Made by a program: the position numbers and the translations under genes
Notes under the pieces: model-generated
The model's input: only the letters and a program-made list of their open reading frames with translations
Told to the model about the DNA's origin: nothing
Database searches by the model: none
Shown here: positions 1,758-15,634 of the stretch, in pieces
Numbering within the stretch: the stretch's first letter is position 1
Layout of the letters: each line of letters starts with the position of its first letter
Origin: a virus
Taxonomy: Duplodnaviria > Heunggongvirae > Uroviricota > Caudoviricetes
Virus record (IMG/VR): IMGVR_UViG_2713896900_000009
Direction: 5' to 3' (one strand)
DNA length: 15,634 nt

Positions 1758-2810
1758 TTATTTCCCCACCAGTTCACTTACCTCTTTCACCGTCTGGTTA
1801 AACCGATCTGACTCAAGCTCAACACCTAACGCCCGACGCCCCAGCGCCATTGCTGCTTTTATTGTGGAACCGGATCCCATAAAGAAATCAGCAACCAGAT
1901 CGCCTGGTCGACTACTGGCATTAATTATTTGCCGGAGCATATCCGCCGGTTTCTCACACGGATGTTTACCCGGGTAGAATTGAACGGGTTTATGCGTCCA
2001 GACATCGGTATAAGGCACGGAGACTGATACGGAGAAATAGCGCCGGAGAGATTTAAATTCATCCAGCAATTCAGAATATTTGCGGCTCAGCGACTCATAA
2101 GTCGCCACCAGCTGGTGGTGTGAATGTTCCAGTTGATTGCGCTGAAACTTCTCTGCCGCAACGCTGGCAAACAACGCCTGCAACTTCTGGTAGTCCGCCT
2201 CGTTCGGTAATTGCCACTGACAGGCACCGAACCAGTGGGACACCATGTTTCTCTTTCCAGTAGCTTCGGCTATCTGCTTTGTCGTTATGCCCAGATCAGC
2301 ACGTGCATTCCGGAAATACGAAATCAGCGGCGCCATGACGTGCTGTTTAAGCTCTCGTTCTTTCGCCGCATAGCCGTCATCTTTAGGCCGGTATGGCCCC
2401 TGATAATGTTCCGCGAACAATATGCGTTCTGTGGCAGGAAAATACGCCCGCAGGCTTTCTTTATTACACCCGTTCCATCGTCCGGATGGTTTCGCCCAGA
2501 TGATATGATTAAGCACGTTGAAACGTTCACGCATCATGATTTCAATATCAGATGCCAGGCGATGTCCGCAGAACAGGTAAAGGCTTCCAGCTGGTTTCAG
2601 TACCCGCCAGAATTGCGCCAGACACTGGTCCAGCCATTTCAGGTAGTCTGCGTCCCCTTTCCACTGATTGTCCCAGCCGTTTGGCTTCACTTTGAAATAC
2701 GGCGGATCGGTAACAATAAGGTCAACGGAGTCATCAGGCAGGGACTGGATAAAATGCAGGCAATCAGCGTTGATTAACTCAACACTGTTTATTTTTACAG
2801 TATTTTTCAT
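1758..2810 (-). CDS. DNA methyltransferase, beta-class N6-adenine/N4-cytosine type (apparent orphan, no adjacent restriction gene seen)
   Basis: 350-aa translation has the catalytic motif IV DPPY near the N-terminus (LIVTDPPYF) and the SAM-binding motif I FxGxGS near the C-terminus (DFFMGSGST), the circular-permuted beta-class order. It is the first large gene of the late-strand block upstream of the holin. Confidence 0.8.
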   Translation of the reverse strand: MKNTVKINSVELINADCLHFIQSLPDDSVDLIVTDPPYFKVKPNGWDNQWKGDADYLKWLDQCLAQFWRVLKPAGSLYLFCGHRLASDIEIMMRERFNVLNHIIWAKPSGRWNGCNKESLRAYFPATERILFAEHYQGPYRPKDDGYAAKERELKQHVMAPLISYFRNARADLGITTKQIAEATGKRNMVSHWFGACQWQLPNEADYQKLQALFASVAAEKFQRNQLEHSHHQLVATYESLSRKYSELLDEFKSLRRYFSVSVSVPYTDVWTHKPVQFYPGKHPCEKPADMLRQIINASSRPGDLVADFFMGSGSTIKAAMALGRRALGVELESDRFNQTVKEVSELVGK

Positions 2811-2960
2811 AGATCAGTAAGCGTAACTCTGGTAGGCTCACGCTGCTTTTGCGCTAAAGCAGTGGGCCATGGTTCGCTTGTGACCAGTTAGCATGAGCGA
2901 ATGGCTGGCAGGTGCTACCAACACCCACCAGCCGCCCATTTTCACAGCAGGAAACCGCCA

Positions 2961-3164
2961 TTACTGGCAGCGTCTGAATTTATTCCCATACCCGCCGTTA
3001 TCCTTCGCCAGACCCGCCAAAACTAACTGCGTCAGTATCAACTGACACCGGGCTTCGCTTACCCCGGTAATACTCGTCATCGCACGGGGCGTTATCCACT
3101 TGTCAGCAGGTAAGAAATGAAGGACTGTGGCGGCGGTTTCTGTCATATCTTGCTGTTTTAGCAT
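2961..3164 (-). CDS. Small hypothetical protein (67 aa), possible helix-turn-helix fold
   Basis: ORF from the track with a plausible ribosome-binding site (AGGT about 8 nt upstream of the ATG at 3164). The segment ITPRAMTSITGVSEARCQLILTQLVLAGL is helix-turn-helix-like. No family recognised; could be spurious. Confidence 0.3.
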   Translation of the reverse strand: MLKQQDMTETAATVLHFLPADKWITPRAMTSITGVSEARCQLILTQLVLAGLAKDNGGYGNKFRRCQ

Positions 3165-3284
3165 GTCTTTTTACCTTTTCTGGTTAACCTGACACACCAA
3201 TAACTCTTGTCTAAAAAGCCAGCAAGATAAAAAGTCGGTATTCACCTCCACCAGCACGTTTACTGTACTGGACCGCTTTTTGGC

Positions 3285-3311
3285 ACAAAAAAACCCGCTC
3301 GGAGGCGGGTT
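3285..3311 (-). terminator. Intrinsic terminator oriented for minus-strand (late-direction) transcription; candidate tR'-like site
   Basis: Read on the - strand: GC hairpin (CCCGC/GCGGG stem, 3293-3308) followed by a run of seven U (plus-strand A-run 3285-3291). On the + strand the same hairpin has only three T after it. Confidence 0.5.
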
Positions 3312-3423
3312 TAAGCTGTGTGGCGAAGTAACCACTCTTAACACAATACAATAGTTTTTGCGTACGCGTTAGCATTTTTGTTAAAGTATAAAAATGTAAT
3401 TAAACCAGTATGTTATCACTACA

Positions 3424-4308
3424 ATGAAATGCATCCGAAAACATCCAGCAATAGCTTATACAGTAATTATTTTAGTTTTTGCCTTAATATACAATTTCAC
3501 TTGGAGCGTCAATCCAGATTCTTTCATTAAAAACAACGTTCTCAACTCTACACCTGTATATGATGCCGTTAATTTAGCATATGCGAACAATGAGGTAAAA
3601 AAAGAAGATCCTGTCAGTGTTTCGAGGGAAGTATTTGCAGAGCAAATTTTAACACTTACAAATCAATTCAATAAGATAATAATTGAAAACTTAGAACTTG
3701 AAAAAACATTATCTCAACAGCAAGAAAAATTAAAACAAATTAGTGAAAGACAATCAATAAAGTGGGGCGAAAACACCAAAAAATACATAGCAGACAGTTT
3801 GAAAGATTTACACAAAACGCTTATCACTAAAAATAGTGAACGTACTGCCATAACATCTTTAAAAAACAAAACAAATGAAAGTCAGATTAACATTATGCTG
3901 GCCGACAAAGATGAAGAAATAGCCAAAATAAACCTTGAAATAGCGTATAAAGAAAATGATGCTAATGTCTATATCTTATCTCATGTCGGCGACTTTAACG
4001 ATCCAATAATCGTTAATGAGCTTGACGCAATCAATAAAGAAATTGAGAAAACAAGAACAAAAATAATAAACAATAAAAAGAAAATAATGGAGATAAGGAA
4101 TAAATCTCAATCTATGCTGGAGAAACTCAAAAAAGATGACCTTAACTTTTGGGATTTCTTATTTTATAGCATAGGAATATCTACAACGACCACCTTTGGT
4201 GATTTGTTAGCAAATTCAAGACTTATCAGACTGATAGTTTGCGTGCAACTTTTACTATCAATTATAGTTTTAGCTAACGTAACTCAAAGGTTTTTATCAA
4301 AAAAATAA
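3424..4308 (+). CDS. AT-rich cargo (moron) gene encoding a membrane protein: N-terminal transmembrane segment, long Lys/Glu/Asn-rich predicted coiled-coil, C-terminal pore-loop-like two-helix module. Function unknown
   Basis: 294-aa ORF on the strand opposite to every neighbouring phage gene. Composition is visibly far more AT-rich than the flanks, with AAA/AAT/ATA codons dominating. N-terminal hydrophobic stretch AIAYTVIILVFALIY. C-terminus FWDFLFYSIGISTTTTFGDLLANSRLIRLIVCVQLLLSIIVLA resembles the pore-helix, filter and inner-helix of a K+ channel (for example the KcsA region LWWSVETATTVGYGDLYPVT) but with a non-canonical filter. Hairpin terminators flank it on both sides. There is no strong Shine-Dalgarno upstream. 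Confidence 0.6.
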   Translation: MKCIRKHPAIAYTVIILVFALIYNFTWSVNPDSFIKNNVLNSTPVYDAVNLAYANNEVKKEDPVSVSREVFAEQILTLTNQFNKIIIENLELEKTLSQQQEKLKQISERQSIKWGENTKKYIADSLKDLHKTLITKNSERTAITSLKNKTNESQINIMLADKDEEIAKINLEIAYKENDANVYILSHVGDFNDPIIVNELDAINKEIEKTRTKIINNKKKIMEIRNKSQSMLEKLKKDDLNFWDFLFYSIGISTTTTFGDLLANSRLIRLIVCVQLLLSIIVLANVTQRFLSKK

Positions 4309-4343
4309 AAAACAAAGCCCTCAAAAATGAGGGCTAATTTAAA
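4309..4343. terminator. Bidirectional intrinsic terminator between the convergent moron and Q genes
   Basis: Perfect 8-bp hairpin AGCCCTCA-AAAA-TGAGGGCT (4316-4335). On the - strand it is followed by a long T-rich tract (TTGTTTTTTATTTTTTT), on the + strand by AATTT. Confidence 0.6.
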
Positions 4344-4345
4344 CC

Positions 4346-4705
4346 TTAAGATAAGAACGATAAAATCCCGTCCAAAAATCCTAGTGCAGTTTGAAGTTCT
4401 TTTCTGACAGTACCATCTGAACATTTTCGTTTCTTTGCGATTGTACGGAGTGAAATACCAATAACAAAGTGAGCAATTAATAATTCATATTCTTCTGGTT
4501 TATATTTACGCAACCGCGCCACACAACCGTCTATCATGATCCCTTCATCATCATCACACTGAAGGCGTGTTTTTTTACCATGAGGTAAAAGCCCCTTGAA
4601 ACCAGCCGCTATCGGCTGCCAGTCCACACCGCTGTTATCTGCTGCTGCCCATGCTCCCCAGCGGTCTAACACCTCGTACATATCACGCATCAAATCTCTC
4701 CACAA
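4346..4705 (-). CDS. Q: Late-gene antiterminator Q (phage 82 / QuuD-like family)
   Basis: 119-aa translation matches my recollection of the E. coli prophage Q homologue QuuD and the phage-82 Q family (LDRWGAWAA; IAAGFKGLL; QCDDDEG..IDGCVARLRK; KCSDGTVRK; Cys-rich motifs). It sits between the nin-like block and the lysis genes. Confidence 0.75.
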   Translation of the reverse strand: MWRDLMRDMYEVLDRWGAWAAADNSGVDWQPIAAGFKGLLPHGKKTRLQCDDDEGIMIDGCVARLRKYKPEEYELLIAHFVIGISLRTIAKKRKCSDGTVRKELQTALGFLDGILSFLS

Positions 4706-6923: not shown

Positions 6924-7246
6924 ACTTTCAGGCCCCTCTCATGTAACCAGTGGGCTGCACGCAGCCTGGCGTTTTCCTCACCGGCAAGCAGTGCGCGGAT
7001 AATCCCGACCGCCTCGCTGTCGTCGTCCTTCACCGCGGTATGAAGCGTTATCCCCCGGGCCACGCCACGCTTTATCGTGATGACGCCTTTTTTCTCCAGT
7101 GCACGAAGATGCTCTACCGCTGCATTCACTGAACGGTATCCCAGCATGGTTGCCACCTCCTGATTGGTTGGCGGAAAGCCACGCTCTTTCTGGTAAGAAA
7201 TCAGCATATCCAGCACCTGCTGCTGGCATTGAGTTAACGTCGTCAT
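6920..7246 (-). CDS. LexA N-terminal DNA-binding-domain-like protein lacking the S24 autoprotease domain
   Basis: 108 aa. The N-terminus aligns by eye with the LexA DNA-binding domain (LT..QQ.V.D.I.....G.PPT..E.A..LG.RS.NAA.EHL.AL..KGVI.I..G..RGI.L). No Ala-Gly cleavage site or Ser/Lys peptidase domain follows. Start overlaps the stop of the upstream methyltransferase gene by 4 nt. Confidence 0.5.
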   Translation of the reverse strand: MTTLTQCQQQVLDMLISYQKERGFPPTNQEVATMLGYRSVNAAVEHLRALEKKGVITIKRGVARGITLHTAVKDDDSEAVGIIRALLAGEENARLRAAHWLHERGLKV

Positions 7247-7896
7247 GCCGCCATCTCCCTGACCAGTTTTTCCGCCTGCTGGCGAACCTGCGCCAGAAAG
7301 GCCTCACCACATGCCTCAAGTTCATCGCGCCCGATGTAGCTGATTGTCGGTCCCTTCCAGGTCTTGTCGAAAACAGCAATAGCACCAGCGAAGAACGCTC
7401 CTGTCGGCACCTGCTTCTCGTCCTTCGGGATAAACCAGGCAGGCAGTTCAAAACCAATACGCCCGCGAATAAAAGCAATATGGTCCGCATCTTCCGGCCA
7501 CCACACTTCGCTGGTGGCAGCTTTGATCAGGAAAACATAGCGCCCGCCCTTATCACGCATGGCACTGGCATGTTTCATGATGTAACGCATGCCGGTGATG
7601 TATTGCCCCTCATGCTGACTGGCGCGGCTGTATGGAGGATTTCCAAAGGCAGCACCTTTAAGCTCCGCAAGACGTTCTGACCAGTCATGCGCCAGCGCGT
7701 TGTCTTCCGCCGTGTAATACGCGGCGCATTTGGCGTTATCACCGTCAGTAAACAGATCCAGAACAAACGGGCCAAACAGGGTGTTAATTCCCCAGAAAAT
7801 GTTGTCCGGTGTGCGCCACTGATCGCCCACTTCCTTCAGTTCATGGGCTGGTTTGTTTCGCAACTCCACCAGCGCCTGGCAATATTTATTACTCAT
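7243..7896 (-). CDS. Phage Dam-like DNA N6-adenine methyltransferase (start at internal Met; track ORF extends to 7929)
   Basis: Catalytic NPPY motif (AAFGNPPYS) and overall resemblance to the small phage N6-adenine methyltransferase family of lambdoid nin regions. The ATG at 7894-7896 overlaps the upstream gene's stop in a TAATG arrangement. Confidence 0.7.
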   Translation of the reverse strand: MSNKYCQALVELRNKPAHELKEVGDQWRTPDNIFWGINTLFGPFVLDLFTDGDNAKCAAYYTAEDNALAHDWSERLAELKGAAFGNPPYSRASQHEGQYITGMRYIMKHASAMRDKGGRYVFLIKAATSEVWWPEDADHIAFIRGRIGFELPAWFIPKDEKQVPTGAFFAGAIAVFDKTWKGPTISYIGRDELEACGEAFLAQVRQQAEKLVREMAA

Positions 7897-8390
7897 TAAG
7901 CCCCCACGTAATTCCCTGACAGATACCACTCATCACCCGATACAGCGCGCTTGCTGCTTTTCCGTAAGCACCGCTCACGACGTGCCAGAAAATTGTTTCG
8001 TTCTGGCTGGGAGTGGCTTTCACGGAATGCCGCCATCCACACCGTTGCAGCACGACGGTATAAGCCCCTTGACTCCAGTTCTTCAGCCTGGCGGGTCAGG
8101 CACAAAATCACCCGGGGATCGTTAGTGCCGACATAGAAATTGCGCACAGGTCTGGTTTCACGAACTGGTTGTGGTTCCGGCTCCTGCGCTCTCTCAGTCA
8201 GGCGCGGGAAATGTCTGCGTGTATCTCCTTCACAACGGTGAGCCACACGCCCACTCTGACGTAACTTGCTTGCTGACTGCAGAACGCGCTGCCGTGAGTA
8301 ACCTGCAAAAGCATCCGCAATGTCTCCGGAAGTACACCCCGGATGGGCTTCAATGAATTTCTGAACTTCATTCAAAAGACTCATAATCAC
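7896..8390 (-). CDS. PerC-like putative transcriptional regulator with an N-terminal winged-helix-like region
   Basis: 164 aa. The C-terminal segment TRQAEELESRGLYRRAATVWMAAF resembles the PerC/Pch family core (..LE..GLWRRAA..W..). The start overlaps the replication gene's stop. Assignment is from memory and weak. Confidence 0.4.
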   Translation of the reverse strand: MIMSLLNEVQKFIEAHPGCTSGDIADAFAGYSRQRVLQSASKLRQSGRVAHRCEGDTRRHFPRLTERAQEPEPQPVRETRPVRNFYVGTNDPRVILCLTRQAEELESRGLYRRAATVWMAAFRESHSQPERNNFLARRERCLRKSSKRAVSGDEWYLSGNYVGA

Positions 8391-9328
8391 CCCCTGAATC
8401 CTGCCGGGATCTGGCTGTAGTCCACATTGTCGTAACTGGCTTTGAAGTACGGGTCTTCACGTTTTTCTGTGTGCGTGCTGACGGACGGCGATAAGCGCAG
8501 GGAAAGCTCATCCCATTTTTCCCGCAACTTCGACGGGCTGAGCACGTTACGGCACCAGAACGGATCGCGGCTGACGCGGCTGTACATCTCGCAGATTTGT
8601 TTGTGAGTACGACCATCCTGCACACACATCAGGCGAATTTCGTTTGCCCAGGCTGTCCAGTTAGGTTCTTTGGGACGAACCACCTCGCCGTCACATTCGG
8701 CGGCCTGCTCGTACAGGGCGATGATTTTTTTCCAGAGCCACTGTGCGCAGGTCAAATCATCCTGCGTTCCCCACTGGCGCTTTTTAGGGCTGAATACAAC
8801 CGCATCAGGATGGCGAGTTAAAAAATCCTGTTCATCCATCTGCGTGTCCGGTTGCGAAGCGTCCGGACGAGAAGGTTTTTTATCTGATGGATCATGTTTT
8901 GATTTTACTGACGGATCCCCGCCAGATTCTGACGGGTGAAAACCCGCTTTTTTGCCAGATTTCGACGCATCAAATTTTGACGGGTCAGATTTTGATGCGT
9001 CAGATTTTGACGGGTCAGAATCTGACAGTTGAGAAAATGCCGCTGCCTGAAGCTTCGCAACGTTAAGCTGATAAACATTCGACGCATTGCGGTTACCCTG
9101 GCGACGCGCCTTACGCGTTAACCAGCCTTCTGCTTCCAGCCGTGCGATAGCCGTTCTGACGGTACTCATCCCCGCGCCAATCTGGCGGGCAATGGTTTCA
9201 ATTGATGGCCAGCACACACCTTCGTCATTACTGAAATCAGCCAGGCGGGCCATAATTGCCACGCTGGATAATTTCATGCCTGACGCTGCGCAACCATCCC
9301 ATACATAGCCGGTTAATTTAGTGCTCAT
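8387..9328 (-). CDS. Phage replication initiation protein (O-like: N-terminal helix-turn-helix DNA-binding domain, repeat-encoded linker, C-terminal domain)
   Basis: 313 aa. N-terminal winged-helix region (WPSIETIARQIGAGMSTVRTAIARLEAEGWL). The central low-complexity linker SDPSKSDASKSDPSKFDASKS is encoded by tandem 15-bp DNA repeats. The gene sits in the O position downstream of the cro and CII-like genes. Confidence 0.6.
   Translation of the reverse strand: MSTKLTGYVWDGCAASGMKLSSVAIMARLADFSNDEGVCWPSIETIARQIGAGMSTVRTAIARLEAEGWLTRKARRQGNRNASNVYQLNVAKLQAAAFSQLSDSDPSKSDASKSDPSKFDASKSGKKAGFHPSESGGDPSVKSKHDPSDKKPSRPDASQPDTQMDEQDFLTRHPDAVVFSPKKRQWGTQDDLTCAQWLWKKIIALYEQAAECDGEVVRPKEPNWTAWANEIRLMCVQDGRTHKQICEMYSRVSRDPFWCRNVLSPSKLREKWDELSLRLSPSVSTHTEKREDPYFKASYDNVDYSQIPAGFRG
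8900..9030. repeat. Tandem iteron-like repeats of about 15 bp (TCAGATTTTGACGGG and variants, at least 6-7 copies) inside the initiator gene; candidate phage origin of replication
   Basis: Seen directly: tgattttactgacgg, cagattctgacggg, cagatttcgacgcat, caaattttgacgggt, cagattttgatgcgt, cagattttgacgggt, cagaatctgacagtt. The arrangement (iterons within the initiator gene's linker-coding region) parallels ori-lambda inside gene O. Confidence 0.5.
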
Positions 9329-9337
9329 GACCGACCT

Positions 9338-9676
9338 CTATTTCCCTGAATTTACGACGAAACTGTTCGAGCGGACTGAAGCATTCATGCTCATAGCCTT
9401 CGCGGAGGTAGATAACCCGTTGTGTTTCCGGTTCCCAACGAATGACTCTGACGGGCACTCCGTAGTGATCTTTGAACCAGCGGTTAACTTGTCGCAAAGG
9501 ACTGTCTCCTTCTGCCGGTTGAAATCACCCACAGCCCACTCTGCAAAGCTGTGGGTTACAATTTCCCTGTCACCTGGTACATTCACTGCATAGCAATATT
9601 CCACCTTCGCTTTTCCACCCGGAACAGGAAGCGCAATCAGTTGCGAGCGACGGTAGTGTGTTGTTAAACTGTTCAT
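9338..9676 (-). CDS. Hypothetical protein (112 aa) between the CII-like and replication genes
   Basis: Its ATG overlaps the upstream gene's TGA (ATGA coupling at 9673-9676) and it is on the same strand as the flanking genes. Preferred over the antisense ORF 9321..9593 for these reasons. No family recognised. Confidence 0.45.
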
Positions 9677-10242
9677 GCGTTAGTTTCTCCACAACCAGAA
9701 GCAATCGACGCCACGACGCCCGGAGCTGCACACTCGCGGGCGTCATTACTTTCTGAAATGCAAAAAATTTTGTAGACAAGTGCTGCATGCTCCTGCAGCT
9801 TCGAAATTGAGAGATACAGCTCGTCGTTAATTGCTGTCTTCTCATGCGGTTCCACTACACCGTCTTCGATTGCTGAACGAATCTGTTTTGAATAACTGCC
9901 GATCTGTTCAATGACTTCCAGCAGACGCTGGTTAATATCGGCGTTGTCCACATCCTCGACGTCAGGAAGAGACACAAAGACGCCATTTGCAGACTGCGCC
10001 ACAGCATCAGCAATGAAGTGAGTGCCACCAGCACGCTGTAAAACCATTGCCCATCCCAGCGGGAAAATCTGATCGCCATCTGCACGAAGGCGGTTGAATA
10101 AAGCGTTTTCTGTTACATCGAGCCAGTCAGCCGCTTCAGCGTAACCACCCGGCAACGCCGCGATAGTTTTTCTGACAGCTTTCACGTACCACTCAGGCTG
10201 TTTTTCTATTTTCCAGTGATGCTTACCCACGATTAGCCTCAT
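9673..10242 (-). CDS. CII-like / YdaT-like early regulatory protein (putative)
   Basis: 189-aa ORF immediately downstream of the Cro/YdaS-like gene in the position occupied by cII or ydaT in lambdoid and Rac-type immunity regions. Call is based mainly on position and size; sequence recognition is weak. Confidence 0.4.
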
Positions 10243-10564: not shown

Positions 10565-11239
10565 ATGAAAACAATCCATGACATCCGGCGGTCTAACGCC
10601 AGAAAACTGAGAGATGGTGTTGGCGGGAATTCTTCCTTTGCCACTATGATTGATCGCGAGCCAACCCAGACCAGCAGGTTTATGGGAGATGGTGCTACTA
10701 AAAATATCGGTGACAGCATGGCACGACACATCGAAAAATGTTTCGACCTACCTGTCGGATGGCTCGATCAAGAACACCAGACAACGAACATCACAAAAAA
10801 ACCTGATGTTTCAATCACTAATAAACAAATCACATTAGTCCCTGTCATATCATGGGTACAGGCCGGAGCATGGAAAGAAGTTGGATATTCTGAGGTTGAT
10901 TTGAGCACAGCAGAAACGTATCCCTGCCCTGTACCCTGTGGGGAAATGACTTATATCTTGCGGGTGATAGGTGATTCAATGATTGATGAGTACCGCCCGG
11001 GAGACATGATTTTTGTCGATCCTGAAGTACCTGCCTGCCACGGTGACGACGTTATTGCATTGATGCACGATACAGGTGAAACCACCTTCAAAAGGTTAAT
11101 AGAAGATGGGACACAGCGTTATCTCAAAGCGTTAAACCCAAACTGGCCTGAGCCTTACATTAAGATCAACGGTAATTGCTCTATAATTGGTACAGTGATT
11201 TTCTCAGGAAAACCAAGAAGATACAAAATCAAAGCCTAA
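10565..11239 (+). CDS. cI: CI-type prophage repressor with C-terminal S24 (LexA-like) autopeptidase domain
   Basis: 224 aa. N-terminal helix-turn-helix-like region. Probable Ala-Gly autocleavage site (VQAGAW), catalytic Ser in the GDSM motif (RVIGDSMIDEYRPGDMIFVDPE) and downstream Lys (TTFKRL). Divergent from cro. Confidence 0.85.
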   Translation: MKTIHDIRRSNARKLRDGVGGNSSFATMIDREPTQTSRFMGDGATKNIGDSMARHIEKCFDLPVGWLDQEHQTTNITKKPDVSITNKQITLVPVISWVQAGAWKEVGYSEVDLSTAETYPCPVPCGEMTYILRVIGDSMIDEYRPGDMIFVDPEVPACHGDDVIALMHDTGETTFKRLIEDGTQRYLKALNPNWPEPYIKINGNCSIIGTVIFSGKPRRYKIKA

Positions 11240-11278: not shown

Positions 11279-11306
11279 TTGACAATGTACCTTTGAGATA
11301 CATAAT
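11279..11306 (+). promoter_or_regulatory. Strong sigma70-like promoter (TTGACA, 16 nt, CATAAT) with an embedded operator-like TGTAC-N7-aTACA site; candidate PL/OL for the early-left operon
   Basis: Seen directly: -35 TTGACA at 11279-11284 and -10 CATAAT at 11301-11306. The spacer contains ATGTACctttgagATACAT (11285-11303), which matches the operator motif of the cI/cro region, and a second ATGTACC follows at 11304-11310. Confidence 0.5.
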
Positions 11307-11432
11307 GTACCCAAGAGAAACAACGAACAGGCAGGACGCCCACGAAGTAGCCGCCTGGGGCATATGAAGTCCAGGATGATTCGTTGAGTCATGTTGTGCC
11401 ACTAGGCACTCATGTTAAAGCAGGTGTATGAA

Positions 11433-14280: not shown

Positions 14281-14526
14281 ATGCTTCAAATGCTGACACT
14301 TGAGGAATGGGCTGCGGAAAAATACAGAAGTAATCCTCCAAGCGTGTCCACATTGCGTCGTTATGCTAAGCAGAATTTATTTTGTCCACCGGCAATGAAA
14401 CAAGGTCGACTATGGCGAGTGCGTGAGGACGCAGAGTTAGTTGGGGAATTAGTTACTCCTGTCATCAAGAAAAATGATTCTATTATTCTACAAAGGATTT
14501 TAAGTAATGGCAGCCAGACCACGTAA
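14281..14526 (+). CDS. xis: Excisionase (lambda Xis-like)
   Basis: The translation MLTLEEWAAEKYRSNPPSVSTLRRYAKQNLFCPPAMKQGRLWRVRED aligns by eye with lambda Xis (MYLTLQEWNARQRRPRSLETVRRWVRECRIFPPPVKDGREYLFHE). Its 3' end overlaps the integrase start, as in lambda. Start is assigned at the Met preceded by GAGG (track ORF starts at 14266). Confidence 0.7.
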   Translation: MLQMLTLEEWAAEKYRSNPPSVSTLRRYAKQNLFCPPAMKQGRLWRVREDAELVGELVTPVIKKNDSIILQRILSNGSQTT

Positions 14527-15634
14527 AAATAATGTTTCAGTCCCGAACTTGTATCCGCTTTATAGTAGAAAAGTAAATAAAGTCTATTGGCGATATAAAC
14601 ATCCAGTGACCGGGAAGTTTCATTCTTTAGGCACAAACGAAGCTGAAGCCATTGCTATTGCCACTGAGGCAAATTCACGCCTGGCTGAGCAAAGAACCCG
14701 GCAGATTCTGGCTATCAGTGACAGGATCGCAACCAGCAAAGGAAAAGCAATCACAACGTCAACCTGGTTAGATCGCTATCAAGCAATCCAGGATGACAGA
14801 CTGGAAAGTGGCGATATAAAGCTAAACACCTATAAACAGAAAGCCAAACCAGTATCCTTGCTCAGGGAACGAGCAGGAATGAAATTAATTTCATCAGTTG
14901 ATGTAAGGGATATAGCACAATTACTTGACGAGTATATCACTGCCGGGCAACCGAGGATGGCGCAAGTAGTCCGCTCCGTTCTAATTGATGTATTCAAGGA
15001 GGCACAACACTATGGGGAAGTCCCTCCGGGCTATAATCCAGCACTGGCAACCAAACAACCCAGAAGAAAAATTACCCGACAACGGTTAAGTCTTGAAGAA
15101 TGGCAAAAAATCTTTGATATCGCAGATGCCCGCCATCGTTATATGGGGAATGCCATGCTGTTAGCACTGGTTACCGGCCAACGGTTAGGTGATATCTCAC
15201 GTATGAAATTTAGCGATATTTGGGATGATCATCTTCACGTCATCCAAGAAAAAACCGGGAGCAAAATCGCCATCCCGCTTTCCCTTCGCCTCAATGCAAT
15301 TAACTGGAGTTTACGCGATGTAGTAGCCCGCTGCCGTGACTATGCAGTCAGCCCATACCTTGTACATTTTTTTCGTACTACTTCACAGGCTGAACGTGGC
15401 GCGCAAGTAAAAGCCAATACATTGACGATGAATTTCAGTAAAGCGAGGGATTTAGCAGGCATTGACTGGGGTGAAGGTTCGCCAGCCACATTCCATGAAC
15501 AAAGATCTTTATCTGAACGCCTATACAAAGAACAGGGGTTAGACACACAAAAACTACTAGGCCATAAATCTCCAATACAGACGGCTCGATACCATGATGA
15601 TCGAGGGAAAGACTGGTTGAAAATTCAAATATAA
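14507..15634 (+). CDS. int: Tyrosine integrase (lambda Int family)
   Basis: 375 aa. The C-terminus LLGHKSPIQTARYHDDRGKDWLKIQI matches the lambda Int catalytic end (HxxR...Y motif; lambda ends ...YRDDRGREWDKIEIK). N-terminal arm-binding-like region. Last gene in the window, so the attachment site is expected just beyond 15634. Confidence 0.9.
   Translation: MAARPRKNNVSVPNLYPLYSRKVNKVYWRYKHPVTGKFHSLGTNEAEAIAIATEANSRLAEQRTRQILAISDRIATSKGKAITTSTWLDRYQAIQDDRLESGDIKLNTYKQKAKPVSLLRERAGMKLISSVDVRDIAQLLDEYITAGQPRMAQVVRSVLIDVFKEAQHYGEVPPGYNPALATKQPRRKITRQRLSLEEWQKIFDIADARHRYMGNAMLLALVTGQRLGDISRMKFSDIWDDHLHVIQEKTGSKIAIPLSLRLNAINWSLRDVVARCRDYAVSPYLVHFFRTTSQAERGAQVKANTLTMNFSKARDLAGIDWGEGSPATFHEQRSLSERLYKEQGLDTQKLLGHKSPIQTARYHDDRGKDWLKIQI

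Follow-up and report, generated by a model that had tools for sequence, protein, structure and literature searches.

The replication initiator gene of an SfII/SfIV-like lambdoid prophage carries six 13-bp dyad-symmetric sites (GTCARAWTCTGAC) inside its own coding sequence, and this repeat array together with the adjoining AT-rich block (8867-9026) is very probably the replication origin of the prophage, as judged from comparison of related sequences. The window, that is the whole stretch of 15,634 nucleotides that was analysed (IMG/VR record IMGVR_UViG_2713896900_000009), comprises, in reverse orientation, the early part of a lambdoid prophage and reaches from int to the lysis genes; its gene order (Table 1) agrees with the synteny of phage SfIV. 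An earlier sequence-only reading had placed an origin within the initiator gene, and all those parts of this proposal that could be tested computationally have held: selection at the level of the DNA, co-variation of the sites with the N-terminal domain, the AT-rich block and the layout known from phi80.

Table 1. Positions of the initiator gene, of its predicted domains and origin elements, and of the other genes of the window
Feature	Position	Strand	Remarks
Replication initiator gene	8387-9328	-	ORF, 313 aa
N-terminal winged-helix DNA-binding domain (predicted)	9035-9328	-	aa 1-98; Pfam HTH_36
C-terminal helical domain	8495-8824	-	aa 169-278; homologue of the C-terminal domain in phi80 gp15
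C-terminal tail SQIPAGFRG	8390-8416	-	like host DnaT SQIPPGFRG-COOH
Five tandem iterons	8954-8966, 8969-8981, 8984-8996, 8999-9011, 9014-9026
Spacer from the array to the isolated iteron	8934-8953		A6 and T4 tracts; TTTT..ACCCG conserved, remainder variable
Sixth, isolated iteron	8921-8933		coding strand GTCAGAATCTGGC; 33 bp beyond the tandem array
Conserved block of about 60 bp	8884-8944		coding strand gTTTTgACCCGtCAGAATCTGGnGGgGATCCGTCAGTAAatTCAAaacaaGATCCATcAG; downstream of the array in gene direction
AT-rich stretch, least stable of the gene	8867-8916		candidate DNA-unwinding region
Integrase	14507-15634	+	ORF and Pfam
Excisionase		+	ORF and Pfam
CI-like S24 repressor	10565-11239	+	ORF and Pfam
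cro-like gene and CII-like gene	9673-10242	-
Small ORF	9338-9676	-	between the CII-like gene and the initiator
PerC-like regulator	7896-8390	-	after the initiator; Pfam
Dam methyltransferase	7243-7929	-	after the PerC-like gene; Pfam
LexA-DBD protein, then RusA, KilA-N, DUF968/HNH		-	after Dam
Q	4346-4705	-
DNA methylase, holin, Rz		-	beyond Q

The initiator gene is 98.7-98.8% identical (megablast) to its counterparts in the Shigella phages SfIV and SfII, where it is annotated as 'replication protein / primosomal protein / O'. The protein matches phrog_391, 'replication initiation O-like', with an E value of 1.5e-135; its RefSeq label is just 'helix-turn-helix domain-containing protein', and one of its database relatives is named 'Replication protein 15'. 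The N-terminal helix-turn-helix domain that had been recognized from the letters alone was recovered by Pfam as a HTH_36 match (aa 23-70, window 9119-9262, 4.3e-11), accompanied by weaker matches to GntR, MarR, PaaX, DnaD_N and RepC_N, and a sequence search of the PDB with the whole initiator returned MarR-like/MarR-family winged-helix matches alone. The C-terminal domain may be weakly DnaD-like or replisome-organizer-like, and no family was assigned to it by Pfam and NCBIfam.

The six near-palindromes occupy the codons of aa 101-136 of the 313 residues, between the N- and C-terminal domains, and they encode the linker peptide SDSDPSKSDASKSDPSKFDASKS at aa 102-124. It had been claimed that the repeats lie at 8900-9030, inside the initiator coding sequence 8387-9328, and encode a repetitive linker; the gene, the peptide and the coordinates are all correct. 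The claim of at least six or seven tandem copies of a unit of about 15 bp was right in the size of the unit, whereas the copies proved to be five in tandem and one 33 bp away. The repeat core is the 13-bp near-palindrome GTCAGAWTYTGAC, and the copy at 9014-9026 is a perfect palindrome. Tandem copies stand 15 bp apart from centre to centre, with a spacer of 2 bp, and in the coding frame the unit reads NNG-TCA-RAW-TCT-GAC, which gives the peptide repeat (P/A)SKSD. Tandem Repeats Finder reported a 15-bp unit in 4.3 copies (8956-9019) and also a 30-bp period. When at most three mismatches were allowed, the window contained 7 matches to the consensus TCAGATTTTGACGGG proposed in the sequence-only reading (0.43 expected), 6 of them within 8918-9025, and 7 matches were attained in none of 200 shuffles; the 13-bp core GTCAGAWTYTGAC had 14 matches against 1.3 expected, and again none of 200 shuffles attained 14. 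Other near-matches in the window, at 14285 and 14700, are at chance level, and a scan of the window revealed no second repeat cluster of the iteron kind. The + strand, which is antisense with respect to the initiator, has a terminator-like hairpin (CGGGTGAAAACCCG) with a T-run at 8933-8946, and this hairpin overlaps the low end of the spacer that separates the isolated iteron from the tandem copies. It was rejected as a terminator because its stem is at best partly conserved in the relatives.

The nature of the selection on the array could be followed in related loci. We collected 80 loci with relatives of the N-terminal domain, one genome per species, and in about 65 of the 80 this domain was 69-100% identical to that of the window initiator. 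The genera represented among these 65 include Shigella, Citrobacter, Kosakonia, Enterobacter, Buttiauxella, Kluyvera and Yersinia, and furthermore Pantoea, Erwinia, Rahnella, Ewingella, Providencia and Proteus. These loci represent more than 20 genera of the Enterobacterales, and nearly all of them contain in-frame arrays of 2-8 copies (mode 5) that begin at about nucleotide 300 of the gene, against a chance expectation of 0.05 per linker, and the copy number changes by 15-bp steps with the reading frame kept. For the analysis of codons 188 units from 47 distinct loci were used, set by register rather than by match. At codon 2 of the unit, 167 of 174 Ser residues are encoded by TCA, and at codon 4 TCT accounts for 142 of 150, while elsewhere in those genes TCA and TCT make up 16% and 10% of the Ser codons, respectively. 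All 188 units have A or T at their centre: AAA, GAA, GAT and AAT occur there, and AAG, GAG, GAC and AAC were found at the unit centre in none of the 188. This codon bias was reproduced in 94 units that had not been used for the choice of the loci.

At the same time the amino acids of the repeat drift, with K, E, D or N at one codon and A, P, T, L or G at another, and the lowest conservation within the unit (0.5-0.7 bits) falls on bases 1 and 2 of the spacer codon, where changes alter the amino acid (A/P/T/L/G). In the N-terminal domain the third positions of conserved residues average 0.69 bits, i.e. they are near saturation. Since synonymous positions are held while amino acids drift, the comparison shows that selection acts on the DNA, on a 13-bp dyad-symmetric site, and that the linker peptide is its by-product. 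We regard it as highly improbable that the repeats are only a disordered Ser/Asp/Lys-rich linker, which arose by replication slippage and has no function as DNA. A low-complexity peptide between two folded domains and a copy number that changes in frame-keeping 15-bp units would suit such an origin of the repeats, but it leaves unaccounted for the third positions and the dyad, held across genera while the amino acids drift and the flanking synonymous sites are saturated, and the palindromic form of every unit, which is meaningless for a peptide.

The relatives also pointed to the part of the protein with which the sites are associated. Two unrelated C-terminal domains, one phi80-gp15-like (13 loci) and the other Phg_2220_C (53 loci), share the same iterons. 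Both loci with a loader-type gene downstream likewise retain the same iterons, and both lack the GFRG tail: L058 (initiator 2501-3403, DnaC-like gene 3387-4136) and L052 (initiator 2501-3343, lambda-P-like gene 3325-4062). The last residues of the L058 initiator, ...GGTDDDFI, recall the acidic tail of SSB. Where the N-terminal domains are 59-64% identical to that of the window initiator, variant sites are found (TTCAAAATCTGAA, TCAAAATTTGAG), and where they are at most 46% identical there are unrelated dyad repeats at the same position in the linker; the linker repeat is GTGCA-N5-TKCAC in mEp460 and GGGCAGGAGCTGCCC in the Stx phage 24B. The sequence of the sites thus co-varies with the N-terminal winged-helix domain and not with the exchangeable C-terminal domain, which makes the winged-helix domain of the initiator the natural candidate for binding the sites.

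Downstream of the array the profile of 65 distinct loci, anchored on GATCCGTCAGTAA, defined a block of about 60 bp in which all three codon positions are conserved. Its third-codon positions reach 1.4-2.0 bits, as compared with the mean of 0.69 bits in the N-terminal domain, and the block does not vary among loci whereas the number of tandem copies does. It includes the sixth iteron, the copy that is best conserved among the relatives, where its distance from the last tandem copy is always 33 or 48 bp, and two further CC(G/A)TCAG half-sites, 21 and 24 bp apart; the half-site motifs GATCC(G/A)TCAG are at 8908-8917 and 8884-8893. Two GATC sequences, 24 bp apart, are contained in the block (8914-8917 and 8890-8893), and in the window as a whole GATC is not enriched (60 against 56 expected). 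A gene for Dam or another DNA methyltransferase follows the initiator in most relatives, and 66 matches to methyltransferase families were counted among the 143 ORFs downstream of related initiators. On the basis of the paired, conserved GATC sites and the downstream methyltransferase genes, methylation may affect the use of the putative origin. Among the 40-mers of the gene, 8870-8909 (72.5% AT) is the least stable; its AT-richness is modest, at only the 95th percentile of the window. DnaA boxes were searched for in the window and none was found.

The arrangement has a close counterpart in gene 15 of phi80 (JX871397), where annotated initiator sites likewise lie inside the gene, in the interdomain linker, and encode a repetitive peptide (KPETGRKFPKTGKSFPKSGITFPKT), and where an AT-rich stretch with GATC follows downstream of the sites. 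The C-terminal domain of phi80 gp15 is homologous to that of the window initiator (36% identity, E 4e-25), whereas its N-terminal domain has no BLASTP-detectable similarity to the HTH_36 domain found here. The two also differ in that phi80 has four gp15 sites of 15-16 bp with a pitch of 21 bp, and the window 5+1 sites of 13 bp with a pitch of 15 bp; furthermore phi80 has a P-like partner, gp14, which is missing here, where the initiator carries a DnaT-like tail.

In phage lambda the dyad-symmetric iterons, four sites of about 19 bp each with a pitch of about 20-24 bp, are inside gene O and serve as binding sites for the N-terminal domain of O, an AT-rich region comes next, and the C-terminal domain of O recruits the helicase complex. 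The gene order cI-cro-cII-initiator-...-Q of lambda matches that of the window, but lambda has a P gene and the window has none. The likeness to lambda that had been drawn from the sequence alone is valid with respect to iterons within the initiator gene, but not for the N-terminal domain, which shares no homology with its counterpart in lambda O; Pfam gave no match of the window initiator to the lambda O family, and HTH_36, GntR and MarR-like matches instead. The 15-bp pitch of the tandem iterons is not in helical phase and differs from the pitches of phi80 and lambda, so the complex cannot be assumed to have the lambda architecture. Iteron plasmids (RepA, pi, TrfA) resemble the present case in having a winged-helix initiator, direct repeats and an adjacent AT-rich region. 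In these plasmids the iterons stand outside the rep gene, in helical phase with a pitch of about 22 bp, and DnaA boxes are usual, while in the window the iterons are intragenic, have a 15-bp pitch and are accompanied by no DnaA box.

Plasmid iterons also serve copy control and incompatibility, which raises the question whether the sites described here are regulatory (in autoregulation, as a transcription roadblock, in handcuffing or in the exclusion of related phages), with the origin elsewhere and with the initiator or another phage or host protein as the binder. Up to four copies of the element are present together in one E. coli genome, and genes of DNA-binding proteins (CII-like, PerC-like, LexA-DBD-like) are nearby, both of which would be compatible with such a role. 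We nevertheless consider it improbable, because the sequence of the sites follows the N-terminal domain of the very initiator in whose gene they lie, the conserved AT-rich block adjoins the sites, phi80 gene 15 has the same layout, and no comparable repeat cluster was found elsewhere in the window.

Taking the array and the block as an origin, we can propose a sequence of events for which lambda O and phi80 gp15 serve as models. Each site would be occupied by dimers of the N-terminal domain, which would build up a nucleoprotein complex, this complex would destabilise the adjacent AT-rich block, and rightward early transcription through the initiator gene would probably help. With lower confidence we suggest that the C-terminal part would bring in host DnaB, with or without DnaC. 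The sequence-only reading had remarked that no P-like or DnaC-like loader follows the initiator, and this was confirmed on a larger scale: tblastn with phi80 gp14, DnaC and the 24B primase-helicase found no match in the window, and Pfam detected no helicase, primase or loader domain in any of the window ORFs from int to Rz. Of 63 related loci, 61 likewise have no loader or helicase gene directly downstream, and the 143 ORFs downstream of the initiator in the 63 loci comprise one lambda-P-like and one DnaC-like protein, the others being mainly DNA methyltransferases, PerC-like proteins, RusA and LexA-DBD. As the phage provides no helicase or loader, the C-terminal part would have to recruit host DnaB, and the candidates for this task are the phi80-gp15-like, possibly DnaD-like helical domain and a tail that may mimic DnaT.

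Modules of this kind have been noticed before. The portion of a 2025 survey of lambdoid phages that was available to us (PMC12315714) lists 34 of 314 phages with an O homologue only, e.g. phage LLS, that is with a single initiator gene and without helicase or loader as in the window; a close relative named there, mEp460_4F5, shares the C-terminal half of the window initiator gene. According to the same portion of the survey these O-only phages are unstudied and their replication 'is not yet understood', and that portion describes no origin, iterons or mechanism for them (PMC12315714). Our literature search found no description of the type of iteron origin presented here, and a paper on Eru of Stx phages had no bearing on it. 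The putative origin is a further case of the well-known intragenic-iteron kind of lambda, phi80 and P22, and it is the loader-less module and the DnaT-like tail that set it apart.

The last residues of the initiator are ...VDYSQIPAGFRG, and those of E. coli DnaT are ...EPDSQIPPGFRG. Eight of nine residues are identical between the two (BLASTP), and the similarity is limited to about the last 9 residues. The DnaT domain PF17948 had no match to the C-terminal half of the initiator even at E 10, and a sequence search of the PDB with the 39-residue tail gave no match. Of the DnaT-like character for which a profile search had been suggested earlier, there is thus a short C-terminal motif, IPxGFRG, but no DnaT domain. 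This motif is invariant in 120 DnaT orthologues, and an ending ...GFRGAK is found in some DnaT orthologues as well as in phage initiators. The 'primosomal protein' annotation of such phage genes may stem from this short DnaT motif. The tail is carried by 41 of the 65 related initiators, on either type of C-terminal domain, and its Arg codon alternates between AGR and CGN among the relatives; this synonymous turnover argues that here, in turn, selection is on the protein. The last 76 nucleotides of the initiator gene (8387-8462) are 97% identical in phages with otherwise unrelated initiators (cdtI, Stx2a and Stx2c phages, Ayreon), and on this comparison the tail-coding gene end is a mosaic, or recombination, joint.

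It may perhaps be, and we put this forward as a tentative proposal only, that IPxGFRG-COOH replaces the phage loader by copying the C-terminus of DnaT, thereby linking the origin complex to DnaB-DnaC or to PriA-PriB. The structural papers on DnaT consulted here assign residues 154-179 no role beyond cooperativity and no partner. The motif IPxGFRG was not found in our literature search. As a full explanation of the loader-less relatives the tail was rejected: 22 loader-less loci are without it, therefore the tail is not the sole route to the helicase. The absence of an encoded loader and the identity of the tail with that of DnaT, a protein of the PriA pathway, also bear on a different course of initiation, in which the array would be an origin but replication would depend mainly on recombination or on PriA-dependent restart, the initiator opening or marking the DNA and the helicase being loaded through host PriA-PriB-DnaT. 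Related O-only phages are discussed in connection with recombination-dependent growth in the available portion of the survey (PMC12315714). We find such a course rather unlikely, though it deserves consideration; the present evidence fits direct DnaB-DnaC recruitment and the PriA route alike.

Some further features of the window were observed outside the initiator gene. Between Q and the methylase gene there is a strongly AT-rich segment (3345-4380) with an ORF of 294 aa (3424-4308, +), on the strand opposite to its neighbours, that has a weak match to Ion_trans_2 (ion channel); this ORF looks like an acquired moron. Just past the end of the CI-like repressor gene, at 11284-11322, a 20-bp unit (AATGTACCCAAGAGAAACAT) occurs in two tandem copies, which could be operator or regulatory repeats. 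The ORF at 6978-7490 (-; 170 aa), which matched no family, shares sequence with the Dam and LexA-DBD genes in a different frame and is probably not a gene. An Rfam scan of the window detected no RNA family.

Among 5426 complete E. coli genomes, 1950 (36%) have the 181-bp segment 8860-9040 with at least 95% identity, in up to 4 copies per genome; given these multiple copies, co-resident prophages may share the specificity of the initiator. This type of putative origin is also present in the serotype-converting Shigella phages SfII and SfIV. Its recognition could be used for better annotation of prophages and for predicting the replication incompatibility of co-resident prophages. With a defined cis element, consisting of six sites and the 60-bp block, and a candidate motif for the recruitment of host factors, O-only replication becomes testable, and the motif may help to find out what the C-terminus of DnaT does. 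If the mimicry by the tail is true, it would explain the replication of the widespread O-only lambdoid phages and would give the tail of DnaT a function.
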